Source: Escherichia coli
GTDB taxonomy: Bacteria > Pseudomonadota > Gammaproteobacteria > Enterobacterales > Enterobacteriaceae
DNA length: 64,000 bases
Assembly: GCF_003018255.1 (NCBI RefSeq)
Contig: NZ_CP027440.1
Strand: one strand, 5' to 3'
A program made the position numbers and the translations under genes. Below, one piece after another: positions 19,733-43,698 of the stretch (positions within the stretch are counted from its first letter, which is position 1; every line of letters begins with the position of its first letter). The notes below the pieces were generated by a model. The model searched no databases and was not told where the DNA came from. It saw only the letters and a program-made list of their open reading frames with translations.

Positions 19733-21021
19733 AGGGAAAGATCACGCAACGCTGCTTTTTTGTACTAAATAATTCGCATTTTATGTTTAAAAATTGAGAT
19801 ATTCCTCATTACCTGAAGCTGTTTTTTATTGCTTATACATGATCAAATACTCCTTACATAATTAAGGAGAACAAAATGGAACTTAAAAAATTGATGGAGC
19901 ATATTTCTATTATCCCCGATTACAGACAAGCCTGGAAAGTGGAACATAAATTGTCGGATATTCTACTGTTGACTATTTGTGCCGTTATTTCTGGTGCAGA
20001 AGGCTGGGAAGATATAGAGGATTTTGGGGAAACACATCTCGATTTTTTGAAGCAATATGGTGATTTTGAAAATGGTATTCCTGTTCACGATACCATTGCC
20101 AGAGTTGTATCCTGTATCAGTCCTGCAAAATTTCACGAGTGCTTTATTAACTGGATGCGTGACTGCCATTCTTCAGATGATAAAGACGTTATTGCAATTG
20201 ATGGAAAAACGCTCCGGCATTCTTATGACAAGAGTCGCCGCAGGGGAGCGATTCATGTCATTAGTGCGTTCTCAACAATGCACAGTCTGGTCATCGGACA
20301 GATCAGGACGGATGAGAAATCCAATGAGATCACAGCTATCCATGAACTTCTTAACATGTTGGATATTAAAGGAAAAATTATCACAACTGATGCGATGGGT
20401 TGCCAGAAAGATATCGCAGAGAAGATACAAAAACAGGGCGGTGATTATTTATTCGCTGTAAAAGGAAATCAGGGGCGGCTTAATAAAGCCTTTGAGGAAA
20501 AATTCCCACTGAAAGAATTAAATAATCCAGAGCATGACAGTTACGCAATTAGTGAAAAGAGTCACGGCAGAGAAGAAATCCGTCTTCACATTGTTTGCGA
20601 TGTCCCTGATGAACTTATTGATTTCATGTTTGAATGGAAAGGTCTGAAGAAATTATGCGTGGCAGTCTCCTTTCGGTCAATAATAGCAGAACAAAAGAAA
20701 GAGCCAGAAATGACGGTCAGATATTATATCAGTTCTGCTGATTTAACCGCAGAGAAGTTCGCCACAGCAATCCGAAACCACTGGCACGTGGAGAATAAGC
20801 TGCACTGGCGTCTGGACGTGGTAATGAATGAAGACGACTGCAAAATAAGAAGAGGAAATGCAGCAGAATTATTTTCAGGGATACGGCACATCGCTATTAA
20901 TATTTTAACGAATGATAATGTATTCAAGGCAGGGTTAAGACGTAAGATGCGAAAAGCAGCCATGGACAGAAACTACCTGGCGTCAGTCCTTGCTGGGAGC
21001 GGGCTTTCGTAATCTTTCCCT
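19733..21021 (+). mobile_element. H-repeat (ISAs1-family) element, copy 3
   Basis: 1289 bp, same inverted repeats; nearly identical to copy 1. Confidence 0.8.
19876..21012 (+). CDS. H-repeat-associated transposase (ISAs1 family), intact
   Basis: 378 aa intact ORF. Confidence 0.8.
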
Positions 21022-21050
21022 GGGGGAGCGGGCTTTCGTAGTCTTACCCT
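21022..21050 (+). repeat. 29-bp degenerate remnant of an H-repeat right end
   Basis: GGGGGAGCGGGCTTTCGTAGTCTTACCCT, a decayed copy of the element terminus. Confidence 0.5.
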
Positions 21051-21852: not shown

Positions 21853-22005
21853 GGTGTACAACTCCTTTATGCGAAGGGTTTTATAACTCTAACACCTTAT
21901 CAGGCAGTTGCCTTAGCGCAGAATAAATTGATAACAAATGCTGATATTGGAAATATCTGATTTGCAAATTATCGTGTTATCGCCAGGCTTTAGGGAGTTA
22001 ATCAC

Positions 22006-27378: not shown

Positions 27379-27680
27379 ACTGCTTATTCCTTGATAAAAC
27401 GGTTACACACGCCAGGACGGCAAAATGAATCCCAAATCGGAATAGTCTGGATTTGGAAGGCTCACATTATCACCAAAAGAGTTTTACGCAAGCCTGTCGG
27501 CGCAGGGTTTACAAATTTAGCACAGGGGCAGTTTTCAAGAGTCCGAAAAGCGCATGGATTGTAGATTTATTTCTTATTTCCTAAGATTATGAAACCGCAA
27601 TAGTAATATGCAAATAAGCAATTAATAATCCCGTTTACTCCTCCGGTCTTTTAAAATTCTCACCTTCATTCAGCTGGTTT

Positions 27681-28439
27681 ATGTCCTTCATGTCTTCGTT
27701 CTTGCACGGCAGATTTCTGCATCCAGGCGTGTTTTCGTTATGCGTTTTGCTCCCTTTACTCGCCAGCGCCACCACATCACATATCTCTTTCAGCTACGCC
27801 GCCCGCCAGCGGATGCAAAACCGTGCGCGTTTATTAAAACAGTACCAAACCCATCTGAAAAAGCAGGCCAGCTATATTGTGGAAGGCAATGCCAAAAGCA
27901 GAAGGGCGCTGCGCCAGCATAATCGGGAGCAGATAAAACAGCATCCAGAATGGTTTCCTGCGCCGCTCAAGGCGAGTGACAGACGCTGGCAGGCGCTGGC
28001 GGAGAACAACCATTTCTTAAGCAGCGACCATCTACACAACATCACCGAAGTGGCGATTCACCGCATGGAGCAGCAGCTTGGTAAGCCTTACGTCTGGGGC
28101 GGCACGCGGCCCGATCAAGGCTTCGACTGTAGCGGGTTGGTTTTTTATGCCTACAACAAGATCCTCGAGGCGAAGCTCCCGCGTACGGCCAATGAGATGT
28201 ATCACTACCATCGGGCAACGATTGTGGCGAATAACGACCTGCGCCGGGGAGATTTGCTGTTTTTCCATATTCACAGCCGTGAGATTGCCGATCATATGGG
28301 CGTGTATCTGGGAGACGGGCAATTTATCGAATCGCCACGCACGGGGGAAACCATACGGGTAAGCCGGTTAGCCGAACCTTTCTGGCAGGACCACTTTTTG
28401 GGCGCGCGCAGGATTTTGACGGAAGAGACGATTTTGTAG
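27681..28439 (+). CDS. yafL: NlpC/P60-family peptidoglycan endopeptidase
   Basis: 252 aa; signal peptide; conserved Cys (FDCSGLV) and His of NlpC/P60. Confidence 0.8.
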   Translation: MSFMSSFLHGRFLHPGVFSLCVLLPLLASATTSHISFSYAARQRMQNRARLLKQYQTHLKKQASYIVEGNAKSRRALRQHNREQIKQHPEWFPAPLKASDRRWQALAENNHFLSSDHLHNITEVAIHRMEQQLGKPYVWGGTRPDQGFDCSGLVFYAYNKILEAKLPRTANEMYHYHRATIVANNDLRRGDLLFFHIHSREIADHMGVYLGDGQFIESPRTGETIRVSRLAEPFWQDHFLGARRILTEETIL

Positions 28440-28440
28440 G

Positions 28441-28530
28441 GCGGATAGGGCGTTTACGCCGCATCCGGCGGTTATGCGCCGATGCCTGATGCGACGCTGG
28501 CACGTCTTATCATGCCTACAAGTCTGCGAA
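28441..28530. repeat. REP (repetitive extragenic palindromic) sequence upstream of rayT
   Basis: GCCGCATCCGGCG...GCCTGATGCGACGCTGGCACGTCTTATCATGCCTAC REP-type palindromic unit. Confidence 0.7.
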
Positions 28531-28614
28531 TATTTTGCGAGCCGCTTTCCCGATATAACACACCCTCATTGTCGACTTTTCCTTTTCTTCTTACCGTTGA
28601 GAAAAGGAGCCGCT

Positions 28615-29112
28615 ATGTCTGAATATCGTCGTTATTACATCAAGGGTGGAACATGGTTTTTCACGGTAAATTTACGGAATCGTCGAAGCCAACTTTTGAC
28701 CGCTCAGTTCCAGATGCTCCGTAACGCCATTATTAACGTTAAGCGAGACAGGCCTTTTGAAATTAACGCCTGGGTCGTTTTGCCGGAACATATGCACTGT
28801 ATCTGGACATTACCCGAAAGCGATGATGATTTTTCCTCTCGCTGGCGGGAGATTAAAAAACAGTTCACCCATGCTTGTGGATTGCAAAATATGTGGCAAC
28901 CGCGTTTTTGGGAGCATGCCATTCGCAATACCAAAGATTATCGTCATCATGTTGATTATATTTACATAAATCCAGTGAAACATGGCTGGGTAAAGCAGGT
29001 GAGTGATTGGCCATTCTCAACGTTCCATCGCGATGTCGCGAAAGGTTTATATCCCATCGATTGGGCGGGGGACGTAACGGATTTTAGTGCCGGGGAGCGT
29101 ATTATTTTATAA
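28615..29112 (+). CDS. rayT: REP-associated tyrosine transposase (HUH family)
   Basis: 165 aa from MSEYRRYYIKGG with AAAAGGAG RBS; HMH motif and conserved Tyr; flanked by REP units. Confidence 0.85.
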   Translation: MSEYRRYYIKGGTWFFTVNLRNRRSQLLTAQFQMLRNAIINVKRDRPFEINAWVVLPEHMHCIWTLPESDDDFSSRWREIKKQFTHACGLQNMWQPRFWEHAIRNTKDYRHHVDYIYINPVKHGWVKQVSDWPFSTFHRDVAKGLYPIDWAGDVTDFSAGERIIL

Positions 29113-29329
29113 TTGTGCGCCGGTGCCGGATGCGCTTACGCTTATCCGGCCTACAAATCTGTGCCTTAACGGTAGGCCGGATAAGGCGTTCACGCCGCAT
29201 CCGGCGGTTGTGCGCAGATGCCTGATGCGACGCTAGCGCGTCTTATCATGCCTACAAATCTATGCCTTAACGGTAGGCCGGATAAGGCGTTCACGCCGCA
29301 TCCGGCAATTGTGCACCGATGCCGGATTC
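29113..29329. repeat. cluster of REP sequences (BIME-like) downstream of rayT
   Basis: Several tandem REP units (…GCCGGATAAGGCGTTCACGCCGCATCCGGC…). Confidence 0.75.
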
Positions 29330-31799
<2,470 letters not shown>

Positions 31800-31835
31800 A
31801 TGCTGAATCTTTACGCATTTCTCAAACCCTGAAAT

Positions 31836-31855
31836 CACTGTATACTTTACCAGTG
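31836..31855 (+). promoter_or_regulatory. LexA (SOS) box of dinB
   Basis: CACTGTATACTTTACCAGTG, a CTGT-N8-ACAG palindrome about 15 bp upstream of the dinB start. Confidence 0.75.
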
Positions 31856-31869
31856 TTGAGAGGTGAGCA

Positions 31870-32925
31870 ATGCGTAAAATCATTCATGTGGATATGGACT
31901 GCTTTTTCGCAGCGGTGGAGATGCGCGATAATCCCGCCCTGCGCGATATCCCTATTGCTATTGGCGGCAGCCGCGAACGACGGGGGGTGATCAGCACCGC
32001 CAATTATCCCGCGCGTAAATTTGGCGTACGTAGCGCTATGCCGACAGGGATGGCGCTCAAATTATGCCCGCATCTCACCTTGCTTCCGGGGCGCTTTGAC
32101 GCCTACAAAGAAGCCTCAAATCATATCCGTGAAATCTTCTCGCGCTACACCTCGCGTATTGAACCGTTGTCACTGGATGAAGCCTATCTCGATGTCACTG
32201 ATAGCGTCCATTGCCACGGTTCTGCGACCCTCATCGCCCAGGAAATCCGCCAGACGATCTTCAACGAGCTGCAACTGACGGCATCTGCGGGCGTGGCACC
32301 AGTAAAGTTTCTCGCCAAAATCGCCTCCGACATGAATAAACCCAACGGTCAGTTTGTGATTACGCCGGCAGAAGTTCCGGCATTTCTGCAAACCTTACCG
32401 CTGGCAAAAATTCCCGGCGTCGGCAAAGTCTCGGCGGCAAAACTGGAAGCGATGGGGCTGCGGACCTGCGGTGATGTGCAAAAGTGTGATCTGGTGATTC
32501 TGCTTAAACGCTTTGGCAAATTTGGCCGCATTTTGTGGGAGCGTAGTCAGGGGATTGACGAGCGCGACGTTAACAGTGAACGGTTGCGAAAATCCGTCGG
32601 CGTGGAACGCACGATGGCGGAAGATATTCATCACTGGTCTGAATGTGAAGCGATTATCGAGCGGCTGTATCCTGAACTTGAACGCCGTCTGGCAAAGGTG
32701 AAACCTGATTTACTGATCGCCCGTCAGGGAGTGAAATTAAAGTTCGACGATTTTCAGCAAACTACTCAGGAGCACGTCTGGCCACGGCTGAATAAAGCTG
32801 ATCTAATCGCCACTGCGCGTAAAACCTGGGATGAACGCCGCGGCGGGCGCGGTGTGCGACTGGTGGGGCTGCATGTGACGTTACTTGACCCGCAAATGGA
32901 AAGACAACTGGTGTTGGGATTATGA
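31870..32925 (+). CDS. dinB: DNA polymerase IV (Y-family translesion polymerase)
   Basis: 351 aa, [22 protein letters not shown]... canonical DinB N-terminus. Confidence 0.95.
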
Positions 32926-33374
32926 ATAACATACAAATAAGAGACTATCAGCCTGGCGATTTTCAGCAACTATGCGCTATTTTCCTTAGAGCGGTTACGA
33001 TGACCGCCAGTCAGCATTATTCACCACAACAAATTGCCGCCTGGGCGCAGAATGACGAATCTCGCTGGAAGGAGAAACTCGCGAAATCACAAGTGCGGGT
33101 TGCAGTCATTAATGCAAAACTGGTCGGCTTTATTACCTGCGTTGAACACTATATCGATATGTTATTTGTTGACCCTGAATACACCCGCCGCGGGGTTGCC
33201 AGCGCCTTGTTAAAACCTTTGATTAAGTCTGAATCCGAACTTACGGTGGACGCCAGCATAACCGCAAAACCCTTTTTTGAACGTTATGGTTTTCAGACAG
33301 TTAAGCAGCAGCACGTTGAATGCAGGGGAGCGTGGTTTACTAATTTTTCTATGCGATATAAACCGCAACATTAA
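32922..33374 (+). CDS. yafP: GNAT-family acetyltransferase
   Basis: 150 aa; start overlaps the dinB stop (ATGA). Confidence 0.8.
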
Positions 33375-33691
33375 ATCCAGCTTGCAATGAAAATAACACC
33401 CGCCTGGTATGTGCGCGTTTTCTTATTCCACAAACTGCAAGGAGGTAAATCATGACAAATCCTTTATCAATGACTCTTTGCAGACCTTTCCAGGATTAAT
33501 TCTTTTTTTCTTGCCCTGGATTCGTCTGCCATTTCCTGATTTTTATATTTATATACTCTAAATAATTCGAGTTGCAGGAAGGCGACAAGCGAGTGAATCC
33601 CCAGGAGCTTACTAAAGTAAGTGACTGGGGTGAACGAACGCGGTCGCAGTACATGCAACTTGAAGTATGACGAGTATAAATGGAATGATAC

Positions 33692-34246: not shown

Positions 34247-34302
34247 TGAAGGATGAAACTGCCGGAAGGCGATTAAACGCCATCCGGCAGCAAATCAAAT
34301 AA

Positions 34303-35760
34303 TTACTTCGCCGGAATTTCTTTCAGCAGTTCAGTCAGTAGTGTCCAGTAATGACCTACGCTTTCGATGTGAACTTGCTCATCCGGAGAGTGTGGACCGG
34401 TGATGGTTGGCCCGATAGAAACCATGTCCATTTCCGGATACGGTTTTTTGAACAGACCACATTCCAGGCCCGCGTGGATAATCTGGATGTTCGGCGTCTT
34501 GTTGAACAGGCGCTGATAGGTTTCACGTACCAGATGCATCACCGGAGAATTAGCGTCCGGCTGCCAGCCAGGATATGCGCCTTTCGCTTCGGTTTTCGCG
34601 CCAGCCAGTTTACCCAGCGAATCCAGCATGCTCACCACGTAGTCTTTACCGCTGTCGATCAGAGAACGGATCAGGCAGTGAATTTCTACGTTATTGTCAG
34701 TCATGGTCACCACACCGACGTTCAGGGAGGTTTCGACCACACCTTTTGCCACGTCGGAGTTGCGGATCACACCGTTCGGGGTGGCGTTCAGCAGACGAAT
34801 AAAGGTATCGCGAGATTTCGCAATCAGGGCAGCTTTATCGTTCGCAACAGAGTCCAGCAACAAGGCCAGATTTTTCTCTTTCTCTGCCAGCTCGTTTTTC
34901 AGGATCTCCTGATAGGTATTCACCAGAGATTTCAAAGCGTCGACTTTATCAGCTGCGACAGCAATGGTCGCAAAGGCTTCACGCGGGATGGCGTTACGCA
35001 GTGTGCCGCCGTTGAAATCGATAAGGCGCAGGTCCAGTTCTTCTGCATGACCCGCCAGGAAGCGCACCAGCAGTTTGTTGGCATTACCCAGGCCAACGTG
35101 GATTTCACCGCCGGAGTGACCGCCTTTCAGGCCTTTTAAGGTTAACTTGAAGGTTTCAAAGCCAGCTGGAACCGCTTCACGATCTAAATGCAGGTTGGAG
35201 GTGAAGTCGATACCTCCCGCACAACCCATGTAGATTTCACCTTCTTCTTCGGAGTCGGTGTTAATCAGAATATCAGCCTGCAACCAGTTGCTCTGTAAGC
35301 CAAAAGCACCGTCCATACCGGCTTCTTCGGTCATGGTCAGCAGCACTTCCAGCGGGCCGTGAACCACGTTTTCGTCAGCCAGAACCGCCAGTGCAGAGGC
35401 CATACCAATGCCGTTATCCGCACCCAGCGTGGTGCCGCGTGCTTTAACCCATTCGCCATCAATATAAGGCTGGATAGGATCTTTGGTGAAGTCATGCACG
35501 GTGTCGTTATTTTTTTGCGGCACCATATCGAGGTGGGCCTGCAAGACGACCGGTTTACGATTTTCCATACCTGCGGTAGCAGGTTTACGAATCAGGATAT
35601 TACCTACCTGATCGCGTTCGACATGGAAACCTTTCTCTTTTGCCCAACCAACAATGTATTCAGCGAGTTGCTCTTCATGATAGGACGGGTGAGGAATAGA
35701 ACAGATTTTGGCAAAAATATCCCACAGCGGCTGTGGAGATAATTGAGACAGTTCAGACAC
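34303..35760 (-). CDS. pepD: cytosol nonspecific dipeptidase (aminoacyl-histidine dipeptidase)
   Basis: 485 aa M20-family peptidase. Confidence 0.9.
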   Translation of the reverse strand: MSELSQLSPQPLWDIFAKICSIPHPSYHEEQLAEYIVGWAKEKGFHVERDQVGNILIRKPATAGMENRKPVVLQAHLDMVPQKNNDTVHDFTKDPIQPYIDGEWVKARGTTLGADNGIGMASALAVLADENVVHGPLEVLLTMTEEAGMDGAFGLQSNWLQADILINTDSEEEGEIYMGCAGGIDFTSNLHLDREAVPAGFETFKLTLKGLKGGHSGGEIHVGLGNANKLLVRFLAGHAEELDLRLIDFNGGTLRNAIPREAFATIAVAADKVDALKSLVNTYQEILKNELAEKEKNLALLLDSVANDKAALIAKSRDTFIRLLNATPNGVIRNSDVAKGVVETSLNVGVVTMTDNNVEIHCLIRSLIDSGKDYVVSMLDSLGKLAGAKTEAKGAYPGWQPDANSPVMHLVRETYQRLFNKTPNIQIIHAGLECGLFKKPYPEMDMVSIGPTITGPHSPDEQVHIESVGHYWTLLTELLKEIPAK

Positions 35761-36020
35761 GTTAAGTCTCCTTGTCGATCACCCGCAAAACAGTATTGCA
35801 GGTCACAGGGTTAGCAGAAAATGTTGTCAACACAAGACAGGCTTGCGAGATATGTTTGAGAATACCACTTTATCCCGCGTCAGGGAGAGGCAGTGCGTAA
35901 AAAGACGCGGACTCATGTGAAATACTGGTTTTTAGTGCGCCAGATCTCTATAATCTCGCGCAACCTATTTTCCCCTCGAACACTTTTTAAGCCGTAGATA
36001 AACAGGCTGGGACACTTCAC

Positions 36021-36479
36021 ATGAGCGAAAAATACATCGTCACCTGGGACATGTTGCAGATCCATGCACGTAAACTCGCAAGCCGACTGATGCCTTCTGA
36101 ACAATGGAAAGGCATTATTGCCGTAAGCCGTGGCGGTCTGGTACCGGGTGCGTTACTGGCGCGTGAACTGGGTATTCGTCATGTCGATACCGTTTGTATT
36201 TCCAGCTACGATCACGACAACCAGCGCGAGCTTAAAGTGCTGAAACGCGCAGAAGGCGATGGCGAAGGCTTCATCGTTATTGATGACCTGGTAGATACCG
36301 GTGGTACTGCGGTTGCGATTCGTGAAATGTATCCAAAAGCGCACTTTGTCACCATCTTCGCAAAACCGGCTGGTCGTCCGCTGGTTGATGATTATGTTGT
36401 TGATATCCCGCAAAATACCTGGATCGAACAGCCGTGGGATATGGGCGTCGTATTCGTGCCGCCAATCTCCGGTCGCTAA
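36021..36479 (+). CDS. gpt: xanthine-guanine phosphoribosyltransferase
   Basis: 152 aa, [23 protein letters not shown]... Confidence 0.95.
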
Positions 36480-36570
36480 TCTTTTCAACGCCTGGCACTG
36501 CCGGGCGTTGTTCTTTTTAACTTCAGGCGGGTTACAATAGTTTCCAGTAAGTATTCTGGAGGCTGCATCC

Positions 36571-37815
36571 ATGACACAGGCAAACCTGAGCGAAACCCTG
36601 TTCAAACCCCGCTTTAAACATCCTGAAACCTCGACGCTAGTCCGCCGCTTTAGTCACGGCGCACAACTGCCTGTGCAGTCGGCCCTTGATGGTAAAACCA
36701 TCCCTCACTGGTATCGCATGATTAACCGTCTGATGTGGATCTGGCGCGGCATTGACCCCCGTGAAATCCTCGACGTCCAGGCGCGTATTGTGATGAGCGA
36801 TGCCGAACGTACCGACGATGATTTATACGATACGGTGATTGGCTACCGCGGCGGCAACTGGATTTATGAGTGGGCTACCCAGGCGATGGTGTGGCAACAA
36901 AAAGCCTGTGCGGAAGAAGATCCGCAACTCAGCGGTCGACACTGGCTGCATGCGGCTACGTTGTACAACATTGCTGCCTATCCTCATCTGAAAGGAGATG
37001 ACCTGGCCGAGCAAGCGCAGGCTTTGTCAAACCGCGCCTATGAAGAGGCCGCTCAGCGTCTGCCGGGCACGATGCGGCAGATGGAGTTTACCGTACCCGG
37101 CGGTGCGCCCATCACCGGCTTTTTGCATATGCCGAAAGGCGATGGCCCGTTCCCGACAGTATTAATGTGTGGTGGTCTGGATGCGATGCAGACGGACTAT
37201 TACAGCCTGTATGAACGTTATTTTGCGCCGCGCGGCATTGCTATGCTGACTATTGATATGCCGTCGGTGGGCTTTTCTTCAAAATGGAAGCTCACCCAGG
37301 ACTCCAGCCTGTTGCATCAGCACGTTTTAAAGGCGCTGCCTAACGTACCGTGGGTGGATCACACTCGCGTCGCGGCCTTTGGTTTCCGTTTCGGCGCTAA
37401 CGTTGCCGTGCGTCTGGCATACCTTGAATCGCCGCGTCTGAAAGTGGTTGCCTGTCTTGGTCCGGTAGTTCATACCCTGTTGAGTGATTTTAAGTGCCAG
37501 CAACAGGTGCCGGAAATGTATCTTGACGTTCTGGCCAGTCGTTTAGGGATGCATGATGCTTCCGATGAAGCGTTGCGAGTGGAGTTGAATCGCTATTCAT
37601 TAAAAGTGCAAGGATTGCTGGGACGTCGCTGCCCAACGCCAATGTTATCAGGCTACTGGAAGAACGATCCGTTCAGCCCGGAAGAGGACTCACGCTTAAT
37701 CACGTCGTCATCTGCTGACGGTAAATTATTAGAGATCCCATTTAACCCGGTGTATCGGAATTTTGACAAAGGCCTTCAGGAAATCACAGACTGGATCGAA
37801 AAACGTTTGTGTTAA
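36571..37815 (+). CDS. frsA: esterase FrsA (fermentation/respiration switch protein)
   Basis: 414 aa alpha/beta hydrolase. Confidence 0.9.
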
Positions 37816-42139: not shown

Positions 42140-42215
42140 GCCGATATAGCTCAGTTGGTAGAGCAGCGCATTCGTAATGCGAAGGTCGGAGGTTCGACTC
42201 CTCTTATCGGCACCA
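42140..42215 (+). tRNA. thrW: tRNA-Thr (anticodon CGU)
   Basis: 76-nt sequence GCCGATATAGCTCAGTTGGTAGAGCAGCGCATTCGTAATGCG…CACCA with cloverleaf features, anticodon loop TTCGTAA, 3' CCA. Confidence 0.9.
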
Positions 42216-42835
42216 TTTAAATCAATAAGTTACACATCACTAATACCTTCCTTATTTTTTATTGGGACAGATTTGGGACCGATGGGTTCAGGATCGAATC
42301 TATTTACCGTGCGTGTTCGGTAAGGTGATTAGGTGCGAGGTGAGCATATCGACGAACCATTTCGAGAGTTTCCCATCCGCTCATTTTTAAGTGCAAGCAG
42401 GGAAACACCGGACCAAACCAATCAGCTGTTCGAAAATGGCAAGCGGATTAATATGCCATGGCGGCTTTGAGCCGCACGCATGGGGTGTGGCAAGCCTGAT
42501 GGATGTTACTGTGCTTGTGGTGGCGTCTTTGCTGGTCTGGTTGTTGGTTAATCGCGAAAATCATTATGCCAGAGGAATACCACAGGACGTTCAGGTTTTG
42601 CATAAAAAAGCCCACCATTAAGGTGGGCAAAAGGAATGATTTATATTCTCTGAGAGAAACATTACATTTCTCCTTGTCACTTCTAACATGAAAATATGGA
42701 GAAATAATGGAGCTTATATTAATTGGCGATTAGGTAACCATGTGGTTATACAAAACAATACAGTTCTTTACATTTGCCTTGTTTTATGAATACTCCTAAA
42801 GAGGTGTATAACATAATGGTACAAGCAGGGTAGAT

Positions 42836-43450
42836 ATGAATATATTTGAACAAACTCCACCAAACCGCAGACGTTATGGTCTTGCTGCATTCATTGGGCT
42901 GATTGCTGGCGTTGTTTCCGCATTTGTTAAGTGGGGGGCAGAAGTTCCATTGCCACCACGTAGTCCGGTTGATATGTTTAATGCAGCGTGTGGTCCGGAA
43001 TCATTAATCAGGGCTGCAGGCCAAATTGATTGCTCCCGTAACTTTCTCAATCCTCCGTACATTTTTCTTCGGGATTGGTTGGGACTGACAGATCCAAATT
43101 CGGCTGTTTATACCTTCGCCGGGCATGTCTTTAACTGGGTTGGTGTAACGCACATAATCTTTTCGATAGTTTTTGCCGTTGGTTACTGTGTGGTCGCCGA
43201 AGTATTTCCGAAAATTAAACTTTGGCAGGGCTTACTGGCAGGTGCTTTAGCGCAACTTTTTGTTCATATGATTTCATTCCCTCTCATGGGACTTACGCCA
43301 CCTCTCTTTGATCTTCCGTGGTATGAGAATGTCTCTGAAATTTTTGGACATTTAGTCTGGTTCTGGTCTATTGAAATTATTCGCAGAGATTTACGAAACA
43401 GAATTACCCATGAGCCAGATCCTGAGATCCCTTTAGGCTCAAATAGATAA
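42836..43450 (+). CDS. yagU: inner membrane protein (DUF1440 family)
   Basis: 204 aa with several hydrophobic segments; position matches K-12 yagU. Confidence 0.75.
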
Positions 43451-43698
43451 TGCTTTGAATGATAAAAATGGCGCAAATATAGCGCCATTTTTATAGGTTA
43501 AAAACGTTGCTTTTCATATTCTGATGCGGACAGTCAGTGATCATATCGCGCTACTTCAGGATGATGTAGATCCGGAGAACGCTACAGAAGAAGAGGCATT
43601 GTTGCTGGAAAATGGAAGAAGTTTCAGGTTTTGTTGTCCCTGAAAAACGAAGCCCCGCTATTACAGCTGGCGGGGCAATGCAATTAATTATTGTATAT

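Follow-up and report, generated by a model that had tools for sequence, protein, structure and literature searches.

The closest described system to the locus reported here is the REPtron of Escherichia coli K-12 MG1655 (PMC3333891; PMC3479197), in which the gene rayT, also named yafM or tnpAREP and in K-12 b0228, encodes a 165 amino acid protein within the order yafL-rayT-lfhA'-lafU-dinB. In the K-12 type of REPtron the left side holds one BIME and the right side a variable number; hicAB takes the place of tnpAREP in B1 strains, and some B2 strains have lost tnpAREP by a precise deletion (PMC3333891). In a collection of 110 strains, 74 were found to carry tnpAREP, always at one and the same site, between yafL and fhiA (Ton-Hoang et al. 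2012, PMC3333891). Binding of REPs by the K-12 RayT requires the GTAG, an unpaired bulge, T11 and G32 (PMC3333891, PMC3479197, PMC8266576), the sequence of the bulge being tolerated provided that it is unpaired (PMC8266576). For cleavage the same enzyme requires a C|T, located either in the inverted REP alongside (iREP-I TGCC|TGAT, iREP-II GGCC|TACA) or within the linker (PMC3333891).

Three other groups of elements are related. The RAYT-REPIN systems (Nunvar 2010; PMC3116915; PMC5581495), within which the E. coli RAYTs make up Group 2 (Bertels et al. 2017, PMC5581495), likewise have a single-copy, vertically inherited Y1 gene and inverted doublets of the genome's commonest repeat; nothing in them differs in kind from the present locus, the only distinction being one of naming, y/z1/z2 BIME instead of REPIN. 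The IS200/IS605 family (IS608, ISDra2) shares with RayT the HUH/Y1 fold and chemistry, substrates that are exclusively ssDNA, and imperfect hairpins with a 5' tetranucleotide. RayT differs from this family in being a monomer, in having a C-terminal tail which supplies E161, in a GTAG which is bound by the protein instead of acting as a base-pairing guide, in its low cleavage specificity (C|T only), in a gene that is single-copy and immobile, and in a score below the threshold of the Y1_Tnp model. Finally, the REP325-derived RNA naRNA4 (Rfam RF02564) is itself the transcript of a y/z2 BIME, encoded at a locus different from that of the rayT BIMEs; its role in nucleoid compaction has been disputed.

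The window analysed in this work, that is the whole stretch of E. coli DNA of 64 kb, contains a locus which we read, with a probability of roughly 0.93, as an E. coli REPtron: a domesticated, single-copy Y1/HUH rayT gene at a fixed site, with one BIME on its 5' side and two BIMEs on its 3' side. Such a feature is already known, with genetic, biochemical and structural accounts of the REPtron available since 2010-2012 and rayT annotated by RefSeq; the locus carries little weight as a discovery, and the call made in the preliminary description was correct and can be closed. The features of the locus are the following.

28436..28469, plus strand: REP1, y type, GTAG followed by the imperfect hairpin GTAGGGCGGATAGGGCGTTTACGCCGCATCCGGC
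28484..28519, minus strand: REP2, z2 type, inverted with respect to REP1 and forming with it the single 5' BIME
28520..28614, plus strand: rayT leader, unique sequence, with the Shine-Dalgarno AAAAGGAG at 28602-28609
28615..29112, plus strand: rayT (yafM, tnpAREP) coding sequence, 165 aa, HUH/Y1 gene
29125..29154, minus strand: REP3, short 30-nt z1-like REP
29141..29327, no strand assigned: tandem repeat of a 101-nt BIME unit, 1.9 copies, 90% match
29172..29205, plus strand: REP4, y type, canonical
29220..29255, minus strand: REP5, z2 type, forming a BIME with REP4
29273..29306, plus strand: REP6, y type, identical to REP4
29320-29327: truncated REP stub TGCCGGAT, abutting the lfhA stop codon and ending the downstream array

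Compared to K-12, the gene lies in the same locus, the catalytic residues and the base-specific contacts of its product are kept, and the REP layout is the same, with one y/z2 BIME 5' and four REPs 3'. Alignments with K-12 and with 2014C-3338 show an architecture shared REP for REP, and in all three sequences the first GTAG includes the stop codon of yafL; in the window this stop codon (TAG, 28437-28439) sits within the GTAG of REP1 (28436-28439). The first downstream REP is a 36-nt z2 in K-12 and a 30-nt z1-like REP in the window. Further differences from K-12 are the A6G and A13G changes in REP1, eight amino acid substitutions in RayT including K91Q, and the lack, nearby, of dinJ-yafQ and yafNO, the gene order being otherwise that of K-12: yafJ, dpaA (yafK), yafL, rayT, lfhA', lafU, dinB, yafP. 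Genes yafL and rayT are in tandem, rayT and lfhA' are convergent.

The preliminary description had proposed an HUH tyrosine transposase gene, and the coding sequence at 28615-29112 bears this out. As judged from a curated protein model and from a match to the solved TnpAREP structure, the gene is RayT/TnpAREP. The single match among solved structures is PDB 4ER8, 'TnpArep' of E. coli MG1655 (E = 3e-113, residues 1-164), to which, as to the K-12 protein, 157 of the 165 residues are identical (95%). The NCBIfam equivalog NF047646 'REP-associated tyrosine transposase' gives a score of 176.6 bits against a cutoff of 80. Pfam at default threshold returned no match for RayT; the Y1_Tnp model (PF01797) reaches only a sub-threshold 16.3 bits (cutoff 23, E = 0.011) and covers residues 19-69 only, so that Pfam alone would miss this family. 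Such a score agrees with RayT forming a clade of its own among the Y1 enzymes. The residues whose roles were described by Messing et al. (PMC3479197) are all retained, namely the HUH motif H59-M60-H61, the catalytic Y115, the metal ligands N119 and H123, the C-terminal E161, and K82, which contacts the bases of the REP. Among the eight substitutions K91Q is the only one that falls in the listed set of DNA-backbone contacts.

The start codon at 28615 lies six nucleotides 3' of the Shine-Dalgarno AAAAGGAG and gives the length of the crystallised protein, 165 aa. A longer open reading frame, 28474-29112 (212 aa), was rejected as spurious: it begins within REP1/REP2 and its extra 47 residues have no match in 4ER8. 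Scanning of 28300-29450 for promoters and terminators was empty, and no sigma-70 consensus promoter was found for rayT in this interval.

REPs were said in the preliminary description to lie on both sides of the gene, one upstream and several downstream. Both sides indeed carry them and the downstream cluster is confirmed, with four REPs in two BIMEs, while the upstream side holds not one but two inverted REPs which form one y/z2 BIME; orientations alternate throughout. The interval proposed for the whole arrangement, 28441-29329, was essentially right and misses only the GTAG of the first REP. A search for the REP consensus across the 64 kb, made with two pattern searches and with an nhmmer profile built from the six REPs, returned exactly these six and no others, all of them beside rayT. 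One additional nhmmer match at 21887-21905 (E = 0.53) was inspected and rejected as a REP. In shuffled sequence the mean number of REP matches was 0.21 and none of 100 shuffles reached six, so the clustering around rayT is not due to chance.

All six repeats have the structure expected of REPs. The GTAG and T11 are present in each, and as ssDNA hairpins they fold with -7.6 to -12.2 kcal/mol (z-scores of -2.8 to -4.4 versus shuffles), and in every fold the stem is interrupted after GAT by an internal loop or bulge. Canonical REPs arranged in BIMEs and a layout matching the K-12 locus (PMC3333891) support the REPtron reading of the preliminary description. The Rfam model of naRNA4 (RF02564, gathering threshold 59.5) matches 28439-28516 at 62.1 bits and 29175-29252 at 78.5 bits, which, as a result of sequence similarity, would indicate only that the two sequences are y/z2 BIMEs.

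The sequence requirements established for the K-12 enzyme can be followed at this locus. Compared to the REP crystallised with TnpAREP (PMC3479197), REP1 has A6G and A13G changed and T11, C27 and G32 kept, and its mid-stem bulge is still unpaired, as A13G produces a G-G mismatch. Candidate cleavage motifs of the iREP-I type are found at 28483 (TGCC|TGAT, in REP2, top strand) and at 29219. Those of the iREP-II type are, on the top strand, at 28513 (TGCC|TACA, in REP2), 29148 and 29249, and on the bottom strand at 29178 and 29279. REP binding, cleavage and strand transfer have been shown in vitro for the K-12 enzyme, which is 95% identical (PMC3333891). As all required protein residues and DNA features are conserved, we infer that the RayT of this locus would bind REPs on ssDNA, cleave at C|T with formation of a covalent 5'-phosphotyrosine and carry out strand transfer. 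Two possible departures are present in the sequence, K91Q at a backbone contact and A13G in the bulge of REP1.

In the mechanism that may be proposed, the RayT monomer would bind the hairpin of a REP on ssDNA, reading the GTAG base-specifically and needing the unpaired mid-stem bulge, T11 and G32. Its cut would fall at a C|T of the adjoining inverted REP or of the linker; RayT would link itself to the 5' phosphate through Y115, with a metal ion presumably held by H59, H61, N119, H123 and E161, and would then rejoin the strands. In vivo, BIMEs or REPINs could thereby be excised, diversified, tandemly amplified and seeded elsewhere, rayT itself remaining stationary. Dissemination of REPs by RayT in vivo, like the advantage for which the gene would be retained by selection, stands at the level of a proposal, no REP transposition by RayT having been demonstrated in vivo (PMC3333891). 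The wording of the preliminary description, in which this arrangement was 'proposed' to mobilise REPs, is apt, cleavage and strand transfer by RayT being known in vitro only.

REPs are also found in many places where no role of RayT has to be invoked, and the flanking REPs could be ordinary intergenic hairpins unlinked to RayT, acting as partial Rho-dependent terminators, stabilisers of mRNA 3' ends, down-regulators of translation at stop codons or sites for gyrase, IHF or HU. REPs elsewhere do work as 3'-UTR terminators and stabilisers (bioRxiv 10.64898/2026.03.23.713779), and the positions occupied here, between tandem genes for the upstream BIME and between convergent genes for the downstream array, are both typical of REPs. 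The upstream BIME moreover begins inside the yafL stop codon, both BIMEs reach the gathering score of naRNA4, and genomes lacking rayT retain BIMEs. On this reading nothing would tie the REPs to the gene, whereas all six REPs of the 64 kb are found no further than 180 nt upstream or 200 nt downstream from rayT, and it is these very flanking REPs that the K-12 enzyme binds and cuts in vitro (PMC3333891). The same point is met in other species, where GTAG hairpins co-vary with RayT homologues at loci that are not syntenic, as described below. Taken as a replacement for the RayT link, the ordinary-hairpin reading is possible and rather unlikely; as the regulatory role and that of RayT substrate are compatible, it is better seen as an added function. 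The flanking REPs are probably also local 3'-UTR terminator or stabiliser hairpins for yafL and for the convergent rayT/lfhA' pair. A REP which starts at a stop codon may, as Liang, Rudd and Deutscher reportedly found in 2015, depress translation of the upstream gene, and REP1 at the yafL stop codon may in this way lower yafL translation.

The comparison with other species was done by scanning GTDB representative genomes for the coding motif WVVLPEHMHCIW (as a DNA pattern), which gave 38 loci, of which 19 were examined. In E. albertii rayT adjoins lfhA-lafU, the locus being cut inside rayT with the upstream flank unreadable, and in two further Escherichia representatives rayT is beside lfhA-lafU and/or yafL, from which a genus-wide synteny can be deduced. 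Citrobacter, Pseudescherichia, Siccibacter, Yokenella and proteobacteria further removed have RayT homologues of 45-75% identity at other genomic positions. GTAG hairpins flank the RayT homologue in all eighteen loci for which both flanks were readable (18 other species, 45-94% identity). The stems of these hairpins are clade-specific: GCCGGATAAG in Escherichia and Citrobacter, GCCCGGCAAG in P. vulneris, GGTGGGTAAG in Siccibacter and GGTGCAAT in Gallionellaceae, with GTCGGATAAG and GGCAGAAGAG as further stems among the 18 loci. The REP sequence co-varies with the RayT lineage. Pairing of the class of the flanking REPs with the RayT subtype, which the preliminary description had suggested as a check, was thus positive, and the cross-species comparison directly confirms that the GTAG-hairpin flanks track the RayT lineage.

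Within the species, 3567 of the 5426 complete E. coli genomes (66%) carry rayT; the median copy number is one and the maximum two, and the gene lies between yafL and lfhA in every annotated match; variants without rayT and variants bearing hicAB occur among the locus matches. This roughly confirms on 5426 complete genomes the figure of two-thirds of strains carrying rayT, first obtained from 110 genomes. The gene is single-copy, in a conserved locus and vertically inherited. By contrast to this single copy, the flanking REPs belong to a family highly repeated across E. coli genomes: the 84-nt BIME at 29172-29255 has a median of at least 38 sites per genome, with counting capped at 40 pieces, in 5425 of the 5426 genomes, including those without rayT. 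As a point against a role of RayT in REP dissemination, the one-third of E. coli genomes without rayT still hold dozens of BIMEs.

These data bear also on the idea that REP-rayT-REP is an autonomous insertion sequence of the IS200/IS605 type, transposing as a whole. A Y1 transposase between imperfect hairpins with a 5' tetranucleotide does resemble IS200/IS605 (PMC3333891, PMC8266576), there is a weak similarity to the Pfam Y1_Tnp model, and seven B2 strains are on record in which rayT was 'precisely excised' with the REPs remaining (PMC3333891). An element of this kind would be multi-copy and at variable loci, whereas rayT has a median of one copy and is beside yafL in all records examined, and is syntenic in E. 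albertii. The Y1_Tnp similarity stays below the cutoff, both REP orientations are found on each side, instead of a left end and a right end carried by the same strand, and a mobilome study saw no eccDNA from RAYT. Comparison of rayT with K-12 gives a dN/dS of 0.09 with a dS of 0.30, which indicates purifying selection on the gene; this value and the mosaicism by homologous recombination described below fit a resident gene. We regard an autonomous insertion sequence as extremely improbable, and the locus as a REPtron with a stationary rayT.

RayT could have been selected not for REP dissemination but for some other use of REPINs, for instance a defence in which it acts as a nuclease and the REPINs serve as bait, or a binding which modulates regulation by REPs. 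Bertels et al. 2017 (PMC5581495), who raise such ideas, consider the movement of REPINs insufficient by itself to maintain RAYTs; selection on the gene is strong though its known activity is estimated at about once per 1e8 generations, and the protection of REP regions from exonuclease under stress has been read in the literature as protein binding. Direct evidence for such a function is absent, one-third of E. coli genomes manage without rayT, and no defence genes adjoin rayT in the window, where its neighbours are yafL, dpaA and Flag-2 remnants. A selected function of this sort appears quite improbable, and a REPtron whose RayT acts on its REPs remains the preferred reading.

The allele of rayT in the window is a rare one, an identity of at least 95% being found in only 20 of 3580 records. 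The rayT locus is about 91% identical to that of most E. coli, a value which is explained by a divergent local haplotype together with a recombination patch. The segment pepD-gpt-frsA (34303-37815) is 98-99.9% identical to 5406 of the 5426 complete E. coli genomes, which rules out that the window originates from an Escherichia other than E. coli. The divergence is local also in comparison with K-12, the yafL-dinB segment being 94.7% identical and the adjacent yafJ-dpaA 98.3%. No interspecies donor of the haplotype closer than E. coli strains was found among E. albertii, Escherichia sp. MOD1-EC7003 and other representatives.

Strain JNE23-011 is the closest relative among complete genomes, with 83 differing sites over 27.5 kb. 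As many as 48 of these (one indel) fall within 28271-28752, a patch that runs from the 3' end of yafL across the 5' BIME and the leader into rayT, of which it includes the first 138 nt, and this patch is 100% identical to strain DETEC-S792. The latter strain is nearly identical from fadE to position 28787 in rayT, and differs further in the 3' part of rayT and in the REP array. From this pattern rayT in the window is deduced to combine two E. coli alleles in a mosaic produced by homologous recombination. Downstream of rayT, DETEC-S792 has two REPs and the window four, the difference being exactly one 101-nt unit. Recent amplification or conversion of the BIME, catalysed by RayT on its own flanks and including the swap of REP3 from z2 to z1-like, might account for this and is in our view improbable; unequal homologous recombination or replication slippage could equally explain a difference of 101 nt in BIME copy between close strains. 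If RayT did make the change, comparison of the locus over thousands of E. coli could provide a first in vivo rate and the signatures of C|T junctions. A rare recombinant allele with a polymorphic number of BIMEs is a possible entry point for a population study of BIME dynamics in the REPtron. Further along the window, a 135-nt match at 33551-33685 to the yafQ region of another strain was identified as an ERIC/IRU element and its reading as a toxin fragment was rejected.

The segment running from yafL through rayT, the gene of the REP-associated tyrosine transposase, the truncated lfhA and lafU to dinB (27754-32925) is 94.7% identical to K-12, and the adjoining yafJ-dpaA segment is 98.3% identical to the same strain. 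The rayT gene itself has a dS of 0.30 to K-12, while usual within-species values are far lower. The stretch 27754-32925 is a deep local haplotype. A closer relative of the segment was sought in E. albertii and other Escherichia representatives, and none was closer.

Differences between the window and its nearest complete genome, JNE23-011, are concentrated in two short patches, 28271-28752 and 31040-31989. The first of these, which covers the 3' end of yafL and continues up to codon 46 of rayT, differs from JNE23-011 and is 100% identical between the window and strain DETEC-S792; rayT is therefore a recombinant mosaic, with its crossover between 28753 and 28787.

Two contigs labelled as other genera also carry rayT. 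L014 (QNRL01000007.1, 2417-5681), labelled Pseudocitrobacter faecalis DSM 27453, has a yafL-rayT-lfhA' locus of the Escherichia type, with protein identities to the window of 90% for RayT and 98% for LfhA and a DNA identity of 90-92%. Its RayT is far nearer to that of the window than Citrobacter RayTs (about 72%). The presence of an Escherichia-type locus on this contig could be due to mislabelling, contamination or horizontal transfer. The second, L031 (JAIJJM010000828.1), is a 1.3-kb contig of a metagenome-assembled genome labelled Collinsella sp.; it holds the gene for an E. coli RayT (94% identical), and REPs of the z2 type follow downstream of the gene. In this actinobacterial assembly the contig is almost certainly a binning contaminant.

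Two toxin-antitoxin pairs of K-12 are missing from the window: dinJ-yafQ, located in K-12 between dpaA and yafL (site 27379-27680), and yafN-yafO, located between dinB and yafP (site 32925-33374). JNE23-011 and DETEC-S792 likewise lack both pairs. The lfhA gene (29330-31799) has no N-terminus, with a Pfam FHIPEP match that begins at position 99 of the profile, and the lafU ORF overlaps its 5' end. These features are the known deletion scar of the Flag-2 lateral flagella, shared with K-12.

Between yafP and the rtcB/prfH remnants lies a long imperfect palindrome of the ERIC/IRU type (33551-33685; about 127-135 nt, MFE -59 kcal/mol), a member of a second class of intergenic repeats in enterobacteria; in strain 2014C-3338 a 97.8% identical copy adjoins yafQ. 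Directly 3' of the pepD stop codon is a REP-like hairpin (34258-34290; CTGCCGGAAGGCG...CGCCATCCGGCAG), similar to a y REP but with a perfect stem and without the GTAG/CTAC tag. The hairpin probably serves as the terminator of pepD or is a REP that has decayed.

At the beginning of the window (248-15487) are the genes of a type VI secretion cluster and, after them, an Rhs toxin gene, downstream of which three ISEc1 copies stand in a row:

248-15487, type VI secretion cluster (TssJ, FHA protein, TssG, TssF, TssC/VipB, TssB/VipA, Hcp, VgrG), then Rhs
11279-15487, Rhs gene
16018-17308, ISEc1 (H-repeat, ISAs1 family), copy 1
17770-19061, ISEc1 (H-repeat, ISAs1 family), copy 2
19733-21030, ISEc1 (H-repeat, ISAs1 family), copy 3

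The three copies are 97.9-99.2% identical to each other, and the transposase ORF of copy 1 is shortened (302 aa versus 378). The secretion and Rhs part has no match in 2014C-3338 (blastn, E < 1e-20), and at this threshold the ISEc1 copies are the only matches of the first ~19.7 kb to that strain.

At 42140-43656 the tRNA-Thr(CGT) gene thrW is directly followed by yagU. This site, which we take to be occupied by the CP4-6 prophage in K-12, is annotated in two related strains with an integrase fragment only, without a prophage. The Rfam IS009 sRNA has a match at 43456-43656.
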